Assembly (NCBI GenBank): GCA_016699365.1
Contig: CP064973.1
Coordinates: 237,684-301,683 of the forward strand
Origin: Candidatus Nomurabacteria bacterium
Lineage (GTDB): Bacteria; Patescibacteriota; Minisyncoccia; Phycocordibacterales; UBA9973
DNA: 64,000 nt
Reading direction: 5' to 3'
The number at the start of each line of letters is the position of its first letter. Position 1 is the first letter of the stretch. The notes under the pieces are model-generated. The model saw nothing but the letters and a program-made list of their open reading frames with translations. It did no database searches and had not been told where the DNA came from. Positions 1,495 to 44,101 of the stretch are shown here, piece after piece. Made by a program: the position numbers and the translations under genes.

Positions 1495-1644
1495 ATTTGT
1501 TTGAATTAGTGGGAATCTTTCCTTACAGGAACAGTGCACCTTTTCACTCCAATAAAATTGAAGCCTGAAAAGCTTTTCGATTCCTACACGCAAGCAAAGC
1601 AGTTTGCTTGCTCGGGAGGACAAAGCCTCGCTTCGCTCATTTTG

Positions 1645-1717
1645 TCCTCCCGGTAGGAATCGAACCTACGACCCTCTCCTTAAAAGGGAGCTGCTCTACC
1701 GACTGAGCTACGGGAGG
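1645..1717 (-). tRNA. tRNA-Lys (anticodon UUU)
   Basis: Hand-folded cloverleaf: acceptor CCTCCCG/CGGGAGG, D-arm GCTC..GAGC, anticodon loop CTTTTAA, T-arm GTAGG TTCGATT CCTAC. There is one G.A mismatch at the top of the anticodon stem. Confidence 0.7.
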
Positions 1718-23667: not shown

Positions 23668-24138
23668 ATGAAACCGGATGATTTAAAAAAAATAATAGGA
23701 GAAATTATAGAATTAATAAACATCCCTTTTGATGAAGTAGATTTTTATTTAGATGAAGAATCTGGGGTTTATTGGTTTAAGATAAAAACCAAAGAATCTA
23801 AGCTTTTAATAGGTAAAGATGGTGAAACTCTAAAGGCTATAAACTATCTTTTCAGAAAGATTGTGGAATCTAAAAATCCAGAAAATATACAGTTTTTAAA
23901 TGTTCTAATAGATGTCAATGATTATCAAAAGAACAGAATAGAAAACATAAAAACAATAGCTCATATGATGGCAGAAAGGGCAAGATATTTTAAATCAAGC
24001 GTAGAAATAGACCCAATGAGCTCTTTTGACAGAAGAATAATACATACATTTTTAGAAAATAAATCAGATATAAAAACAGAATCTACTGGAACCGGACTGA
24101 ATAGAAGAGTTGTAATAAAATACGTAGGAAATATATAA
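23668..24138 (+). CDS. jag: Jag/KhpB-like RNA-binding protein (KH plus R3H)
   Basis: 156 aa; C-terminal R3H-like motif RRIIHTFLEN; conserved position after yidC. Confidence 0.7.
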   Translation: MKPDDLKKIIGEIIELINIPFDEVDFYLDEESGVYWFKIKTKESKLLIGKDGETLKAINYLFRKIVESKNPENIQFLNVLIDVNDYQKNRIENIKTIAHMMAERARYFKSSVEIDPMSSFDRRIIHTFLENKSDIKTESTGTGLNRRVVIKYVGNI

Positions 24139-24163
24139 CATAAAACACCGATCTGTCGGTGTT

Positions 24164-25693
24164 TTATGTTATTCTTGGGCGATATTGTATCGCTTCTAAT
24201 ATATGTTTACTATCAATTTTTTCACTATCATCTAAATCTGCAATAGTACGAGCAAGTTTTAAAACCCTGTGATACGCGCGGGCGGATAAATTTAATTTAC
24301 TTGCCGCTTGATTTAAAATACCCTCAACATCTTTTTCTAAAGAAATATATTTTGATATATCCTTAGCTCCCATGTCAGAATTTCTGTTTATCTTTTCATT
24401 CTCCCCACTAAACCTAACAAACTGCTTTTTATAAGCTTTTTCTACCCTATTACGAACAGATTCTGTATTTTCGGATAAATCATTTTTACTATTTAATTTA
24501 TCGTATTCAATACTTCCAACTTCAACCCAAATATCAATACGATCCATTATTGGTCCAGATAATTTTCTTTGATACCTGGCTATATCCCCCGCCGTGCAAA
24601 CACACTCTTTATTTTTTGATCCTCTGAAACCACAAGGGCAAGGATTCATTGCTGCAATAAGTATAAAATTTGAAGGGAAAATAGCGGTTCCTTTTGCTCT
24701 AGATATTGAAACAAAATTATCTTCAAGTGGCTGTCTCAATGATTCTATGACTCTTTTATCAAACTCTGGAAATTCATCCAAAAAAAGAACCCCTCTGTGT
24801 GACAGTGTTACTTCGCCTGGTTTAGGTGTAGCTCCCCCACCAATAACTGAAACATAAGAAGATGTGTGGTGAGGTGATCTAAAAGGGGCTTTTGTTATAA
24901 CAGGTGTTTTTAGATTTCCTGCAATTGAATATATGCTAGTTATTTCTAGTGCTTCGTTTTTTGAAAGACTCGGTAATAATGATCTAAAAGCTCTGGCAAG
25001 CATTGTTTTTCCGGTTCCTGGTGGTCCATACATAGCTATATTGTGCCCTCCACTAGCTGCAATCTCCAGTCCTCTTTTCGCACTTTCTTGACCTTTTATA
25101 TCTGCAAGATCAACAGAAGATTCATCATTTATATCCTCTATCGGAGTAATAGGTTCTTTTATTATGGATACGTTTTTATCTGTAAGGTGTGTAATCAGTT
25201 CTTTCAATGTAGAAACCCCATAAATATCAATACCTTCTATTAGAGCTGCTTCTTTTGCATTTTCTTTTGGAACATAAAGCTCTTCAAAACCTTCAGATTT
25301 GGCCAACATAACCAAAGGTAAAACACCTCTAATAGGTAAAACATCCCCATTTAAAGATAATTCTCCTAGAAATATTTTTTTATCAACATTAAATGATATA
25401 TCCTCACTCGCCAAAAGATATCCAAGAGATATAGCAACATCAAAAAAAGAGCCCTCTTTCTTTGTATCTGCAGGAGAAAGAGAAACGACAATTTTTTGAT
25501 TTTTGCTTTTAGGAGATGTAAAACCAGAGTTTTTTATAGCAGAACTTACTCTGTCTCTAGCTTCTTCGACTGCCTTGTCAGGTAGTCCTACAATTGAAAA
25601 AGCATGTAAGCCACTTGAAATATCAACTTCTACATTTACAAGCTGACCTTTTAGTAGATTTATTTGTGCTGTATATACACGCGCAAAGGACAT
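24164..25693 (-). CDS. comM: YifB/ComM-family Mg-chelatase-like AAA+ ATPase
   Basis: 509 aa; Lon-like N-domain; Walker A GPPGTGKTM; C4 zinc motif CPCG...C.C. Confidence 0.85.
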   Translation of the reverse strand: MSFARVYTAQINLLKGQLVNVEVDISSGLHAFSIVGLPDKAVEEARDRVSSAIKNSGFTSPKSKNQKIVVSLSPADTKKEGSFFDVAISLGYLLASEDISFNVDKKIFLGELSLNGDVLPIRGVLPLVMLAKSEGFEELYVPKENAKEAALIEGIDIYGVSTLKELITHLTDKNVSIIKEPITPIEDINDESSVDLADIKGQESAKRGLEIAASGGHNIAMYGPPGTGKTMLARAFRSLLPSLSKNEALEITSIYSIAGNLKTPVITKAPFRSPHHTSSYVSVIGGGATPKPGEVTLSHRGVLFLDEFPEFDKRVIESLRQPLEDNFVSISRAKGTAIFPSNFILIAAMNPCPCGFRGSKNKECVCTAGDIARYQRKLSGPIMDRIDIWVEVGSIEYDKLNSKNDLSENTESVRNRVEKAYKKQFVRFSGENEKINRNSDMGAKDISKYISLEKDVEGILNQAASKLNLSARAYHRVLKLARTIADLDDSEKIDSKHILEAIQYRPRIT

Positions 25694-27073: not shown

Positions 27074-27142
27074 TTACCTAATAGTATCTTATTTTATTCA
27101 ATTTAAAAACCAGATAATTTATCTGGTTTTTAAATTGATTAG

Positions 27143-29979: not shown

Positions 29980-30102
29980 AAAATGTTTTTTCTAATTGTA
30001 ATAAAATATTCAATGCTCAAAGTTTGCTACATATAGTGTAGCAGAATGTATATAAATAAGGAGTGTATAAAAAATATCACTCGATTTCTCGAGTGATATT
30101 TT

Positions 30103-30363
30103 TTATTCTTTTATCTTTTTAACAGCTGCAGCGTGGCGTGTCTTATCTTTCTTCTCGAGGTATTTAAGATGTGATCTGCGGTCTCCAACCATTTTGATGA
30201 GTCCTCGTCTTGAGTGGTCATCTTTCTTGTGTTTTTTAAGATGAGTTGTAAGTTCGTCAATAGAAGCCGATAGGATAGCTATCTGCACTTCTGGTGAACC
30301 AGTGTCCTTTTCATGAACCTGGCTCTTTTTTATAACTGTTTGTTTTTTCTTTACTGTAAGCAT
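30103..30363 (-). CDS. rpsO: 30S ribosomal protein S15
   Basis: 86 aa; motif DTGSPEVQIA...RRGLIKMVGDRRSHLKYL. Confidence 0.85.
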   Translation of the reverse strand: MLTVKKKQTVIKKSQVHEKDTGSPEVQIAILSASIDELTTHLKKHKKDDHSRRGLIKMVGDRRSHLKYLEKKDKTRHAAAVKKIKE

Positions 30364-40202: not shown

Positions 40203-40229
40203 AAAGCGCCCCACCGGAGCGCTTTTTTT
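40203..40229 (+). terminator. intrinsic terminator hairpin (aagcgc-cccaccgga-gcgctt + T-run), shared by convergent genes
   Basis: Inverted repeat followed by TTTTTTT; overlaps the cca stop. Confidence 0.5.
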
Positions 40230-41712
40230 ACTTTTTTACATTATGTTTTTTGTGTATTTCCCCAAGCTCCTTTTCTTCTGCCTCATCTTTTGTTTGTTTT
40301 GCTTTCTCTCCGAGTTTTTTCAATTCTTCATCTGACAACTCGTTTAGCTCCCCTACTCTCTTGTCCAAGTATTCACGTGTATTTTTTTCTGGTTCATCGA
40401 GCACTTCTTCGAGAAGTGAATTTAGAATCCAACCCATGCGAGGTCCTGCTTTTACACCAAGTTCTTTCATTAGAATATTTCCATCCACTACAAGTTGCGA
40501 TACAGATATCGGATCACGAAGTACTTGCTCGATCATCGCATGATATTTACGCAATCGATAAGGAGCCTCAACTTTTGCCATACCAACACGATCGCACTCG
40601 CGCACATTCATAAGAGTCCAGATATTTTCTACACCTACATTGCGCACAACTCTTCGTACAGCAGAAAGTGTAATCTGTTCTGTGTCAGAGAAGAACATGT
40701 GATATCGCACAAGACTCGTTACAAGCTCGATTGTATCTTTCGGAAACCTCATCCGCTCCATTATCACGCGTGCCATACGAGCACCGACGACTTCGTGTCC
40801 ATAGAAGGTATAAGCTTTCTTGATCCCCTTTCTTCGAGTCTTTGGCTTTCCGATATCGTGAAAGAGCGCAGAGAGTCTGATCTCAAGTGGCCATCCTTTG
40901 TCAGCTGAATGCTGGAGAGCCTGTAGTAAGTGTTCGTATACGTCGAACTTGTGTGCACCTCCTTGCTCACAACCAATCCCCTGTTCAATTTCTGGAATTA
41001 TATATTTGAGCATGCCAGTTTTTTGAAGCATTGCTATTCCAACAATTGGTTCTGGTGACATGATTATTTTTATAAATTCATCACGGGTTCTTTCTGCAGA
41101 TATTTCTGAAATACTTTGGGCAGTTTCAACAATGGCTTGTAACGTATCGCTTTCGATCGCAAATCCAAGTTCACAAGAAAAACGAATTGCTCTAATCATG
41201 CGTAGAGCGTCCTCAGAGAACCTGTCTGAAGAATTACCAACGGTGCGTATAGTTTTGACCTTTATGTCCTTTATACCCTCAAAAAGGTCAATTAATTGGC
41301 TTTTAGATGGGTTGTAGGCCAGTGCGTTGACCGTGAAATCCCTTCTGGATAGGTCGTCGTTTATATTTTTGCTAAAGGACACAGTATCTGGATGTCTTTT
41401 GTCTGAATACTTACCTTCAGTGCGGTATGGTGTTATTTCAATTTGCTTAAGTGTCTTATCTTCTGTATTTTCTAGAATAATCGCAACAGTACCGAAATTA
41501 TTTTCGTATACAGTTTTTTCATATAAAGGAATTATTTCTTCGGGTACTGCATTTGTGGTTATGTCCCAATCTTTTGGTTTACGATTTAACAATAGATCAC
41601 GTACACACCCACCAACAAGAAAAGCCTCAAAACCTGCTTTTTCTAAGGTATTCATTACTTCCAAAATTTCGCTTGGAATACTTTCATTTTTTATTGTCTT
41701 TTCAGGGCTCAT
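40228..41712 (-). CDS. cca: CCA-adding tRNA nucleotidyltransferase with C-terminal HD domain
   Basis: 494 aa; GGCVRDLLL and RRDFTVNAL PolB-type NT motifs; HD motif ALFHDIGK. Confidence 0.8.
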   Translation of the reverse strand: MSPEKTIKNESIPSEILEVMNTLEKAGFEAFLVGGCVRDLLLNRKPKDWDITTNAVPEEIIPLYEKTVYENNFGTVAIILENTEDKTLKQIEITPYRTEGKYSDKRHPDTVSFSKNINDDLSRRDFTVNALAYNPSKSQLIDLFEGIKDIKVKTIRTVGNSSDRFSEDALRMIRAIRFSCELGFAIESDTLQAIVETAQSISEISAERTRDEFIKIIMSPEPIVGIAMLQKTGMLKYIIPEIEQGIGCEQGGAHKFDVYEHLLQALQHSADKGWPLEIRLSALFHDIGKPKTRRKGIKKAYTFYGHEVVGARMARVIMERMRFPKDTIELVTSLVRYHMFFSDTEQITLSAVRRVVRNVGVENIWTLMNVRECDRVGMAKVEAPYRLRKYHAMIEQVLRDPISVSQLVVDGNILMKELGVKAGPRMGWILNSLLEEVLDEPEKNTREYLDKRVGELNELSDEELKKLGEKAKQTKDEAEEKELGEIHKKHNVKK

Positions 41713-41761
41713 TTGAGCTTTTTAGTTAGTAAACATAAGTTTATTAACCTATTGTATTTTG

Positions 41762-41832
41762 TGCGGGATAGGAGAATCGAACTCCTGTCTCATCCTTGGC
41801 AAGGACGTGTTCTACCACTAAACCAATCCCGC
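41762..41832 (-). tRNA. tRNA-Gly (anticodon GCC)
   Basis: Hand-folded: acceptor GCGGGAT/ATCCCGC; anticodon arm CGTCC-TTGCCAA-GGATG; T-arm AGGAG TTCGATT CTCCT. Confidence 0.75.
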
Positions 41833-41913: not shown

Positions 41914-41985
41914 GCACCCATAGTGAAATGGATATCATACCGGTCTTCGGAACCGTTGTTGGGGGTTCGAATCCCTCTGGGTGCA
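41914..41985 (+). tRNA. tRNA-Arg (anticodon UCG)
   Basis: Hand-folded: acceptor GCACCCA/TGGGTGC; D-arm GTGA..TCAT (with G.U); anticodon loop CTTCGGA; T-arm GGGGG TTCGAAT CCCTC. One C.T mismatch in the anticodon stem. Confidence 0.55.
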
Positions 41986-42187
41986 CATGCGAGGAGGACT
42001 ATTGTCCGACGATTCATGTACAAGGCGCAGAGATACTTCAAGTAGCAACTTGAAGTATCGAGCCAGGGGCGCGAAATTTTCTGCGCGACGGCGAAGAAAA
42101 TATTTGTGACCACTAATGACCAAATAGAAACCAATGTCCTTTACACCCTGTCTTTTACACACAAAAAACCCTTATTTTTCAACAAAA

Positions 42188-43637: not shown

Positions 43638-43708
43638 GCGGGATTAGTTAAATGGTATAACTTCAGTTTTCCAAACTGAAATCAAGGGTTCGATTCCCTT
43701 ATCCCGCA
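43638..43708 (+). tRNA. tRNA-Gly (anticodon UCC)
   Basis: Hand-folded: acceptor GCGGGAT/ATCCCGC; D-arm GTTA..TAAC; anticodon arm TCAGT-TTTCCAA-ACTGA; T-arm AAGGG TTCGATT CCCTT. Confidence 0.8.
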
Positions 43709-43763
43709 CATAAAACACACGGCTCGGACGCGAAAGCGTTCGGGTCTTTGTGTTTTACTGCGG

Positions 43764-43881
43764 TAAGGGAATCGAAAGACGGAGACGGTATACAAGACGA
43801 GCGAAGCGAGTGCTTGTCGCCGAGTCGGGGTCGCAGAATTTTTTGTAATAAAATATCTGTGACCGATTCCCTTATCCAATA
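43764..43881 (+). repeat. tRNA-Gly(UCC) 3'-end-derived repeats: inverted copy (43766-43777) and exact 14-nt direct copy CGATTCCCTTATCC (43868-43881)
   Basis: The 14-mer is identical to 43691-43704 of the tRNA. The inverted copy gtaagggaatcg can pair with it. Between them lie GC-rich hairpins (for example acgcgaaagcgt). Confidence 0.5.
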
Positions 43882-43938
43882 CAAACAAACTTGAAAATTA
43901 AGGATATCTCGGCTATACTGAGCGCTCAGGCAAAACAT

Positions 43939-44009
43939 CGGGGTGTAGTATATCGGTAGTATACTTGTTTTGGGAACAAGAGGGCCGGGTTCGATTCCCG
44001 GCACCCCGA
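43939..44009 (+). tRNA. tRNA-Pro (anticodon UGG)
   Basis: Hand-folded: acceptor CGGGGTG/CACCCCG; anticodon arm CTTGT-TTTGGGA-ACAAG; T-arm CCGGG TTCGATT CCCGG. Confidence 0.8.
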
Positions 44010-44101
44010 CAAAGAATAAAAACGGCGTAATGCCGTTTTTATTCTTTGTTATCAAACAAATAGACTGTAACAGAATAATTATTTAGGTATATAATCTAGA
44101 T

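Follow-up and report, generated by a model that had tools for sequence, protein, structure and literature searches.

A conserved structured module with sense and antisense copies of the tRNA 3' end behind tRNA-Gly(UCC) in a Candidatus Nomurabacteria genome

The spacer between tRNA-Gly(UCC) and tRNA-Pro(UGG)

The spacer between the tRNA-Gly(UCC) and tRNA-Pro(UGG) genes was analysed in a 64,000-nt stretch of a Candidatus Nomurabacteria genome (contig CP064973.1), called the window here. The window is a low-GC bacterial chromosome segment encoding PolA, a class A penicillin-binding protein, PNPase, PilB, ComM and a CCA-adding enzyme, and a phage origin was rejected on this gene content. The spacer is 229 nt long and contains an element of about 125 nt (about 170 nt including its leading hairpin), which almost certainly belongs to a real, conserved family of structured modules linked to tRNA genes. 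The 135-aa protein encoded just upstream is annotated at NCBI as a Candidatus Nomurabacteria protein. From the tRNA-Gly side, the spacer is made up of a hairpin resembling a terminator (HP1), an antisense arm (X'), a core with a three-way junction and, last, a sense arm (X2). X' and X2 are copies of the tRNA 3' end, whose functional copy within the tRNA gene is called X1. The features of the locus are as follows.

43638-43709, plus strand: tRNA-Gly(UCC), intact (ARAGORN; Rfam tRNA, 72.9 bits)
43691-43708, plus strand: repeat copy X1, from C56 to the discriminator of tRNA-Gly, with the 14-mer at 43691-43704
43711-43757, plus strand: HP1, with an A-rich left arm, a GC stem with a GAAA loop and a T-rich right arm, bridging X1 and X' directly
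43759-43776, plus strand: X', the 3' end of tRNA-Gly in antisense (TGCGG--TAAGGGAATCGAA), able to pair with tRNA positions of about 54-73
43775-43863, plus strand: conserved core, three-way junction (alignment, covariation, covariance model, fold z = -6.2)
43775-43777, plus strand: core junction J, AAA
43778-43780 with 43824-43826, plus strand: core helix P2, GAC/GUC, followed by the internal loop GGA/GA
43784-43787 with 43818-43821, plus strand: core helix P2, GACG/CGCC, with its hairpin up to 43817
43816-43834, plus strand: family-invariant 19-mer GTCGCCGAGTCGGGGTCGC, inside the core
43827-43829, plus strand: core junction J, GGG
43830-43834 with 43859-43863, plus strand: core helix P3, GUCGC/GUGAC, with a bulged A and an AU-rich hairpin
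43864-43877, plus strand: X2, sense copy of the tRNA 3' end from C56 to position 69, 3' strand of helix P1
43878-43938, plus strand: downstream flank with a promoter-like site for tRNA-Pro at 43891-43919 (TTGAAA-17-TATACT)
43939-44010: tRNA-Pro(UGG) (ARAGORN and Rfam)

The 14-mer CGATTCCCTTATCC, which in tRNA-Gly begins in the T-loop and extends into the 3' strand of the acceptor (43691-43704), recurs exactly at 43864-43877. When up to two mismatches were allowed, the 14-mer pattern had five matches in the window versus 0.33 expected from shuffles, and none of 100 shuffles reached five. The duplication described in a first-pass annotation of this DNA is therefore exact and not a product of chance. 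The first copy had been placed correctly there, but the second had been placed at 43868-43881, which is 4 nt off. The inverted copy reported in the same annotation exists as well, as a perfect 13-nt pair of TTCGATTCCCTTA (43689-43701) and TAAGGGAATCGAA (43764-43776), and not at 43766-43777. The nested hairpin aaaacaca...tgtgtttt with acgc-gaaa-gcgt is real and corresponds to HP1.

HP1 contains an 11-pair stem (43721-43746) followed by the T run TTTGTGTTTT, and with its GC-rich stem and T run it looks like an intrinsic terminator. Every family member has a hairpin at the place of HP1, and the ends of this hairpin are specific to the subfamily. tRNA-Pro is also followed (44009-44049, plus strand) by a perfect hairpin of 18 bp whose left arm is A-rich and whose right arm is T-rich; it is HP1-like in style and has no module behind it. 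Similar intergenic palindromic hairpins appear on both strands as weak matches of the covariance model R1 described below (for example 30065-30108, 27095-27141 and 24132-24175).

Against shuffles, the spacer folds with z = -6.8 on the plus strand versus z = -3.2 on the minus strand. In the predicted plus-strand fold, the inverted copy pairs with the second direct copy (X' as the 5' strand of helix P1 with 43864-43877), and a branched domain lies inside. Folding of the module only (z = -6.2, plus strand) is also predicted to form P1 plus the junction. Compared with the family, the window copy is shortened at its right end. Its X2 lacks the last acceptor bases CGCA, and the last four acceptor pairs of P1 are lost. 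X' and X2 are separated by 89 nt. The family norm of X2 reaches 1-3 nt past the discriminator, and a complete X2 is present in the relatives L221 and L011. Because the last acceptor bases of X2 are lost, the 14-nt repeat is below the norm and the window copy may be partly disabled. The unit between the repeats is 173 nt here and complete in itself; across the family it is about 170-200 nt.

An intron-containing pseudo-tRNA, one of the options in the first-pass annotation, does not fit the locus, since the upstream tRNA-Gly is intact and the element sits after the discriminator. The same holds for tRNA introns of the group I and archaeal bulge-helix-bulge types, because the tRNA is uninterrupted.

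Distribution, fold and tRNA-derived arms of the family

In the window, the core 19-mer and a core 24-mer each have a single match at up to three mismatches. The exact 19-mer GTCGCCGAGTCGGGGTCGC was found in at least 120 metagenome stretches among the matches listed, and about two-thirds of them show the full architecture. A two-block pattern matched 82 stretches in a collection of species-representative genomes, with one to three per genome. Every taxon-named record among these matches belongs to the Candidate Phyla Radiation (CPR)/Patescibacteria; the taxa matched are Paceibacterota/Parcubacteria and Nomura-, Kaiser-, Campbell-, Lloyd-, Zambryski- and Taylorbacteria, and some records are titled 'uncultured Candidatus Saccharibacteria'. 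Altogether, more than 140 distinct copies were obtained from metagenomes and CPR genomes. In 98 of 144 distinct copies the core starts 59-69 nt behind the end of a tRNA, with about 29 anticodon types represented, and the copies without a detected tRNA are mostly second units of tandem arrays. The module is always on the tRNA strand and at a fixed distance behind the tRNA. The first-pass annotation had considered a remnant of an excised element, which is refuted by a complete unit that keeps the same architecture in this many copies and behind this many kinds of tRNA.

At every locus the arms match the local tRNA. The direct repeat always has its left end at C56 of the T-loop, with GGTT/CGAxTCC in the tRNA and GTGAC/CGAxTCC downstream (65 loci; the slash marks the boundary). 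It is typically 19-20 nt long and its right end usually lies 1-3 nt past the discriminator, although it sometimes extends into HP1, or through a second unit over at least 82 nt (L063 and L100). The relative L011, whose flanking protein is 62% identical, has tRNA-Gly(GCC) at the syntenic place, followed by a homologous hairpin and an antisense arm. Its core is nearly identical to that of the window (…AAAGACGGAGGCGGTATACAAGACGAG…TGTCGCCGAGTCGGGGTCGC…GTGAC), and its sense arm repeats 19 nt of the tRNA end of GCC type, the discriminator included. In L011 the antisense arm was altered along with the tRNA, from A-T to G-C plus one G.U. Because this arm changed with its tRNA, the arms follow the local tRNA and the core is conserved.

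For the analysis of the fold, 45 short copies were aligned and curated with a hand-written structure (alignment A1). A1 replaced the result of RNAalifold on a raw MAFFT alignment of 111 copies, which gave a poor structure due to the variable hairpin lengths. The written structure consists of P1 (X':X2), AAA, P2, GGG and P3, and the conserved core enclosed by the arms measures about 90-110 nt across the family. In the family, P2 is formed by GAC/GUC, the internal loop GGA/GA, GGCG/CGCC, a bulge ending in AC and a variable hairpin, and P3 by GUCGC/GUGAC, three pairs, a bulged A and a variable hairpin. The window copy has GACG where the P2 consensus is GGCG, which leaves an A.C mismatch. In A1, 89.2% of the cells pair, versus 75.6% in shuffles and 34-46% with slid partners. 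The covariation score of 0.391 versus 0.149 was reached by none of 500 shuffles, and two-sided changes occur in 8 of 13 pairs of P3 and in 3 of 5 pairs of the P2 hairpin.

G.U pairs are conserved at A1 columns 81/117 (44 of 45 sequences) and 83/115 (31 of 45). Because they would be C.A mismatches on the other strand, the fold is assigned to the tRNA (plus) strand, and we hold with good confidence that the folded form lies on this strand. That it is an RNA, rather than single-stranded DNA, is probable. We infer transcription of the core from the strand-specific G.U pairs and the covariation.

The covariance model R1 built from A1 scores 121.8 bits on the window copy (43756-43882) and also recovers divergent units, such as an extra unit in L224 with 60.9 bits. 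A comparison of the spacer with Rfam 15 gave no match in the core at gathering thresholds; at E values up to 10 there were only weak overlaps with HP1, of SSRC10 (15.7 bits) and Atu_Ti3 (14.8 bits), far under their gathering scores. The small non-coding RNA that the first-pass annotation kept as its fallback comes close to what is found, a covarying structured unit. Conservation of the spacer across distant relatives as a structured RNA, which that annotation had named as the observation that would speak against an integration scar, was also found.

Divergent core subfamilies (L224, 1419-1549; L194, L195 and L215; for example GAAAGACGGAGGCCGCGAAGCC…GAGGCCGAGTCCGGGG…CTTGACCC) retain the architecture. 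They show a compensatory change of GGCG/CGCC to GGCC/GGCC in the otherwise invariant helix P2b, and in L215 arrays of up to three units occur plus one in the opposite orientation.

Known RNA motifs were compared with the core by eye and rejected. GAAA and GUC of the hammerhead are present but its CUGANGA box is absent, and HDV-like, hatchet, pistol and twister ribozymes have no Rfam matches. The loop sizes are wrong for a kink-turn at the GGA/GA loop, and the resemblance to group II domain V is only superficial. A small open reading frame (ORF) or a Shine-Dalgarno-like GGAGG was rejected as well, since no start is conserved. The tips of the P2 and P3 hairpins are often GAGCGAAGCGAG/A (window 43799-43810, for example), a GC-closed triloop GCGAAGC with possible tandem G.A pairs. 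The GCGAAGC triloop motif is an unusually stable DNA mini-hairpin, and by this analogy such tips could hint at a single-stranded DNA form.

The comparison of the three arms covered 88 copies. At each of positions 56-72, X' is paired with X1, the functional tRNA copy, in 57-100% of them, but at discriminator 73 in only 27%. The pairing is imperfect, with a mean of 14.4 of 18 positions. Among 299 positions where X1 and X2 differ, X' pairs with X1 only in 192 and with X2 only in 28. X2 equals X1 over 18 nt in 33 of the 88 copies; in the remaining ones the match usually stops at a breakpoint, after which the two are unrelated. These results indicate that the antisense arm is kept matched to the working tRNA. 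An origin of X2 by snap-back copying of X' was rejected, since X2 often equals X1 where X' is not an exact complement. Of 242 distinct tRNAs examined, 85 are followed within 200 nt by their own T-arm in antisense, and no such copy was seen in the 200 nt upstream of any of them; the loci had been chosen for copies of this family (family 1), so the downstream fraction is biased upward.

The extent of P1 is that of a T-stem stacked on an acceptor stem with a free discriminator, as shown by the family-wide pairing at positions 56-72. T-loop bases 56-60 are paired with AAUCG; the T-loop is absent and the core stands in its place. When the full transcript was folded, the tRNA's own 3' end was predicted to pair preferentially with X' across HP1. 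Two mutually exclusive folds are thus possible in the model, X1:X' on the one hand and P1 plus the junction on the other.

Gain, loss and exchange of units, and further modules

Close relatives of the locus were reached through homologues of YraN. In the same species, 10 contigs carry the spacer at 99.9-100% identity and 5 end inside it (L004-L007 and L010). Either the repeats break assemblies at this point, or the strains differ there as in L224 and L225. These two relatives (YraN 95% identical) have an extra divergent unit adjoining the same tRNA-Gly(UCC), in the order of extra unit, full X and an orthologue of the window unit with the same truncated X2 and flank. In L219, L220 and L223 (YraN 85%), tRNA-Gly(UCC) plus its promoter is inverted and no unit is present. 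In L221 and L011, the two tRNA-Gly isoacceptors are swapped in position and the unit stands behind Gly(GCC), with all three arms of the GCC type. The number of units therefore varies at the same tRNA with conserved flanks, as seen in a comparison that the first-pass annotation had also proposed. Its integration signature stands insofar as the repeat starting in the T-loop marks inserted material that is gained and lost by units, but the material is not a remnant of a degraded integrase element.

The tRNA-Gly genes in the window (41761-41832, minus strand, and 43638-43709, plus strand; GCC and UCC) are about 1.9 kb apart and mutually inverted, and the pair of tRNA-Arg and tRNA-Gly(GCC) is also inverted in L219, L220 and L223. 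The tRNA-Gly locus is a rearrangement hot spot, and the rearrangements possibly act through the shared tRNA-derived repeats.

The flank before tRNA-Pro is conserved in relatives with and without the element, with an identical ACTTGAAAATTAAGGATATCTCGGCTATACTGAG in L219, L221, L223 and L224. The genes beyond tRNA-Pro (encoding proteins of 94 aa and 328 aa, HU and TrmB) are likewise syntenic in both. Because the promoter flank of tRNA-Pro and the genes beyond it are conserved throughout, the spacer is not the edge of a larger island, as had been suggested in the first-pass annotation.

Tandem arrays of two to three units are frequent and contain decaying distal copies; in two arrays the repeat is identical over at least 82 nt. 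The cores hardly follow the tRNA type. Their mean identity is 0.71 between copies at the same tRNA type versus 0.69 at different types, the nearest core neighbour is of the same tRNA type in 11 of 89 cases, and 22 of 25 core pairs with at least 90% identity are at different tRNA types. HP1 identity is low between loci with near-identical cores, which suggested that HP1 is merely the tRNA's own terminator. This explanation is weakened by the subfamily-specific ends. Signatures of HP1 subfamilies, such as AAAAATAAnGAG…CGACTATATTTTT, were seen with six tRNA types, and tRNAs without the element in these loci lack them. HP1 may or may not travel with the core.

Further features of the window are a gene and two modules behind other tRNAs.

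40228-41712: CCA-adding enzyme gene
42022-42110, plus strand: degenerate family copy, core positions 21-109 only (R1 with filters off, 27.3 bits, E about 2e-5)
about 1500-1643, minus strand: related module of 'family 2', after the tRNA at 1644-1717

The degenerate copy directly follows tRNA-Arg(UCG) (41914-41986). Its P3 is intact, and the hairpin and arms are no longer recognisable. Its counterpart is found at the same place in L001 of the same species (40 bits) and, better preserved, beside tRNA-Arg in L219 (48 bits). The tRNA before the family 2 module (1644-1717, minus strand) was called 'tRNA-Stop, anticodon tta at position 35' by ARAGORN. By hand count (anticodon stem GCTCC/GGAGA, loop CTTTTAA) it is a normal tRNA-Lys(UUU), and there is no evidence of a stop-codon suppressor tRNA at this position. 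The family 2 antisense arm is composed of GTCCTCCCG (antisense to the acceptor 3' strand), the hairpin GAGCAAGCAAACTGCTTTGCTTGC (1590-1613) and GTAGGAATCG (antisense to the T-stem and T-loop), and behind it lie AAAAGC, a small core of a different kind and, in decayed form, a sense arm AGATTCCCAC. The hairpin, which is conserved, splits the arm exactly at the acceptor/T-stem junction, where the tRNA body would sit. The family 2 design is also present in L221, L133, L074, L159, L172 and L176.

Interpretation and rival explanations

When neighbouring genes were clustered at 151 loci, no linked integrase, transposase or reverse transcriptase was found. No protein family occurs at more than 13 of the 151 loci, and the commonest neighbours are housekeeping genes (PilM, CCA-adding enzyme, ClpB, L19, RluA, RuvX, YraN and HU). 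Pfam and PHROG scans of the 17 largest and the flanking ORFs of the window detected no recombinase. GenBank phages compared by blastn gave only tRNA-Gly matches, and two core 15-mers met 128 loci on IMG/VR viral contigs, none with both blocks, so no viral copy was seen. In the open-access literature, examined by topic and by core sequence strings, no description of the element was found. With no match in Rfam 15, the viral, phage and plasmid-style comparisons or this literature, the element is apparently undescribed.

Several known systems share single features with it. Like the integrative elements of tRNA genes, it has a repeat from the T-loop to just beyond the tRNA 3' end and leaves the tRNA intact, it accretes in tandem beside the tRNA, and its presence varies between relatives; Williams is said to have described, in 2002, a T-loop sublocation class of tyrosine integrases at tRNA genes. 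Unlike those elements, the module has about 170-200 nt, no integrase and no genes, it carries an antisense target copy and a covarying conserved three-way junction, and the same core stands behind about 29 tRNAs, each time with arms that fit the tRNA in question. Of the usual marks of a tRNA integrase island, the direct repeat is present, and a recombinase gene, cargo and a synteny break are not.

The CTX-phage attP, an integrative mobile element exploiting host XerCD at dif, and the integron attC are similar in that two inverted target-like copies fold to imitate a duplex target, here X' with X2 or X1 over 13-18 nt, and in that an element without its own recombinase has a strand-specific fold. 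The module differs from both in having a tRNA gene as its target instead of dif or attI and in carrying neither phage nor cassette cargo. Its sequence between the two copies is strongly conserved, and the end of its stem resembles that of an acceptor stem, the discriminator being free.

The tRNA-like RNAs (the tmRNA domain, viral 3' structures, mascRNA and YrlA) share the stacked acceptor/T helix with an unpaired discriminator; in family 2 a hairpin stands where the tRNA body would be, and P1 would be a plausible substrate of RNase P, RNase Z or the CCA-adding enzyme. They have a fixed identity, whereas the arms here copy whichever tRNA is upstream. In addition, the T-loop is replaced by five extra pairs and the core, Rfam has no match, and there are multiple copies, which stand in tandem and decay. 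Phage T4 encodes stable small RNAs, the species 1 and 2 RNAs, within its tRNA cluster. They are comparable as structured RNAs among tRNA genes that are presumably released by tRNA-processing enzymes, but they belong to a phage and not a bacterial chromosome, they have no antisense or sense copies of the adjacent tRNA, and there is no sequence relationship (phage records matched only the tRNA).

Miniature transposable elements with inverted repeats (MITEs) and the REP/BIME, Correia and RPE-type repeats are also short, non-coding, structured, multi-copy and intergenic with inverted-repeat ends. In the present module, however, the inverted ends derive from the target and differ between loci, unlike terminal repeats that a transposase binds. 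A short target-site duplication is lacking, neither a related autonomous insertion sequence nor a transposase was seen nearby at the 151 loci, and the module stands exclusively behind tRNAs on the tRNA strand. We therefore rate the element as a new kind, which shares single features with tRNA att sites, CTX attP/attC, tRNA-like RNAs and MITEs and fails a defining feature of each. A recombinase acting in trans, if found, would make it a radical variant of the tRNA-targeting integrative elements.

The explanation that we favour, with about an even chance of being right, is a selfish structured RNA module that mimics tRNA arms and is gained, lost and exchanged through shared tRNA sequence. The broader statement that the module is selfish and mobile, and not a host function, is rather likely. 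The module would be read on the tRNA strand by read-through of HP1 and would fold as RNA. P1 would imitate the acceptor/T arm, so that the module could be released and completed by the host enzymes that act on tRNA ends (RNase P, RNase Z, CCA-adding enzyme). We propose this release tentatively, as a step somewhat short of an even chance. The conserved junction might be the site for a partner or for a catalytic activity. Whole units of X-HP1-X'-core would be gained, lost and stacked beside the tRNA by recombination through the repeated tRNA segment, and cores would be exchanged among tRNA loci and genomes, with the antisense arm staying matched to the functional tRNA.

Several observations weigh against this explanation. 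HP1 resembles an efficient terminator, and the module has no evident promoter. In about one third of the copies, that of the window among them, X2 is truncated or shows no relation past 6-12 nt, so a complete acceptor mimic is not always maintained. The predicted X1:X' pairing would damage the tRNA, which the model leaves unexplained, and a folded single-stranded DNA would yield the same G.U and covariation signals. Recombination alone also does not explain how X' matches about 29 different tRNAs.

A further reading is a new class of self-propagating genetic element of about 130 nt that mimics the tRNA on which it is a parasite. In this version a structured RNA or a folded strand would home to tRNA genes by its 18-nt antisense guide and re-template its arms there, with its own catalytic core, host enzymes of tRNA processing or repair, or an unlinked protein as the agent. 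We regard such an element as doubtful, though conceivable.

The first of the rival explanations, though unlikely, is a miniature integrative element moved in trans by a site-specific recombinase of the host or a phage acting on a folded single strand. In a single-stranded circle of X1-HP1-X'-core, X1:X' would rebuild the double-stranded target from the T-loop to the 3' end. One exchange at U55/C56 would insert the unit, X1 would restore the tRNA and the old 3' end would become X2. Such an exchange agrees with a repeat running from the T-loop to just past the tRNA end with a fixed left and a variable right boundary, with new units always beside the tRNA and tandem arrays, and with X' tracking X1 while X2 decays, as if X1 and X' were inside the mobile unit and X2 outside. 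The two inverted target copies about 90-110 nt apart resemble the geometry of CTX attP, strand-specific G.T pairs suit a folded single-stranded DNA, and the HP1 subfamily signatures missing after element-free tRNAs of the same loci also fit. However, no recombinase is linked at the 151 loci and viral contigs have no copies. An X1 plus X' unit of one tRNA would make a chimeric and probably dead tRNA elsewhere, although near-identical cores occur at many tRNA types. RNA mimicry fits better with an X':X1 pairing that is imperfect (14.4 of 18), stops at position 72 and leaves the discriminator unpaired, and the strict junction conservation and covarying distal helices are more RNA-like than att-like.

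A host-beneficial, vertically inherited cis-acting RNA of tRNA operons is a little less probable again. It might be a 3'-trailer domain that controls how the tRNA 3' end matures or passes quality control, a regulator acting in antisense, or a decoy that draws off enzymes or toxins recognising the acceptor/T arm of that tRNA. It could explain the extreme conservation of the core, with its invariant 19-mer, across very divergent CPR genomes, the antisense arm matched to the functional tRNA, and the constant strand and distance of the module; a switch could also be provided by the alternative fold predicted with the 3' end of the tRNA. In contrast, the carrier tRNAs differ between genomes (the exact pattern detects one to three per genome), presence and absence differ at the same tRNA among close relatives, tandem arrays have decaying distal copies, and the core phylogeny is decoupled from the tRNA type. 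For these four reasons, a selfish repeat is preferred over a fixed housekeeping part.

An RNA-mediated (retro) element is very unlikely. In such an element the antisense arm would play the part of the primer-binding site of retroviruses. Copying would be primed by the 3' end of the tRNA or by a nick in its gene, and both arms would be re-templated in each cycle on the tRNA then used. Arms would then match about 29 tRNA types automatically with near-identical cores. A retroviral primer-binding site is 18 nt long, and so is the part of the tRNA 3' end covered by the antisense arm. The repeats running into HP1 and the varying right end of X2 resemble template switching. But the arm has no TGG that would pair with CCA, X' is imperfect although fresh templating should give an exact copy, the neighbours at the 151 loci include no reverse transcriptase, and several template switches would be needed.

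The duplication of the tRNA 3' end from the T-loop onward would also be expected of an attL/attR scar of an excised or degraded integrase island, or of the edge of a larger island, but we give this reading practically no weight and reject it, since the sequence between the repeats is a complete, covarying unit conserved across distant genomes in more than 140 copies, the flanking genes are syntenic in relatives with and without it, and no integrase remnants were found in the window ORF scans or at the 151 loci. IS91 (GTTC target) and IS200/IS605-TnpB (flank-derived guide) would suit the fixed T-loop boundary; they were also rejected, as the restored tRNA end and the antisense arm stay unexplained and genes of these kinds were not seen.

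A large share of bacterial diversity belongs to the CPR/Patescibacteria, whose non-coding RNAs and mobile DNA are hardly explored. In practice, the element may break assemblies at tRNA loci and can pass for the att sites of islands; the invariant 19-mer is a handy marker of Paceibacteria, and R1 can be used for annotating the element. Hundreds of copies with an invariant junction, covarying helices and arms that copy the tRNA represent a design outside the current classes of RNA families and mobile elements. If the module is an RNA that tRNA-processing enzymes release, it would be a new kind of tRNA mimic. If the element moves by an antisense guide or a folded att site, it would represent a new mechanism of targeting tRNA genes without a linked recombinase.

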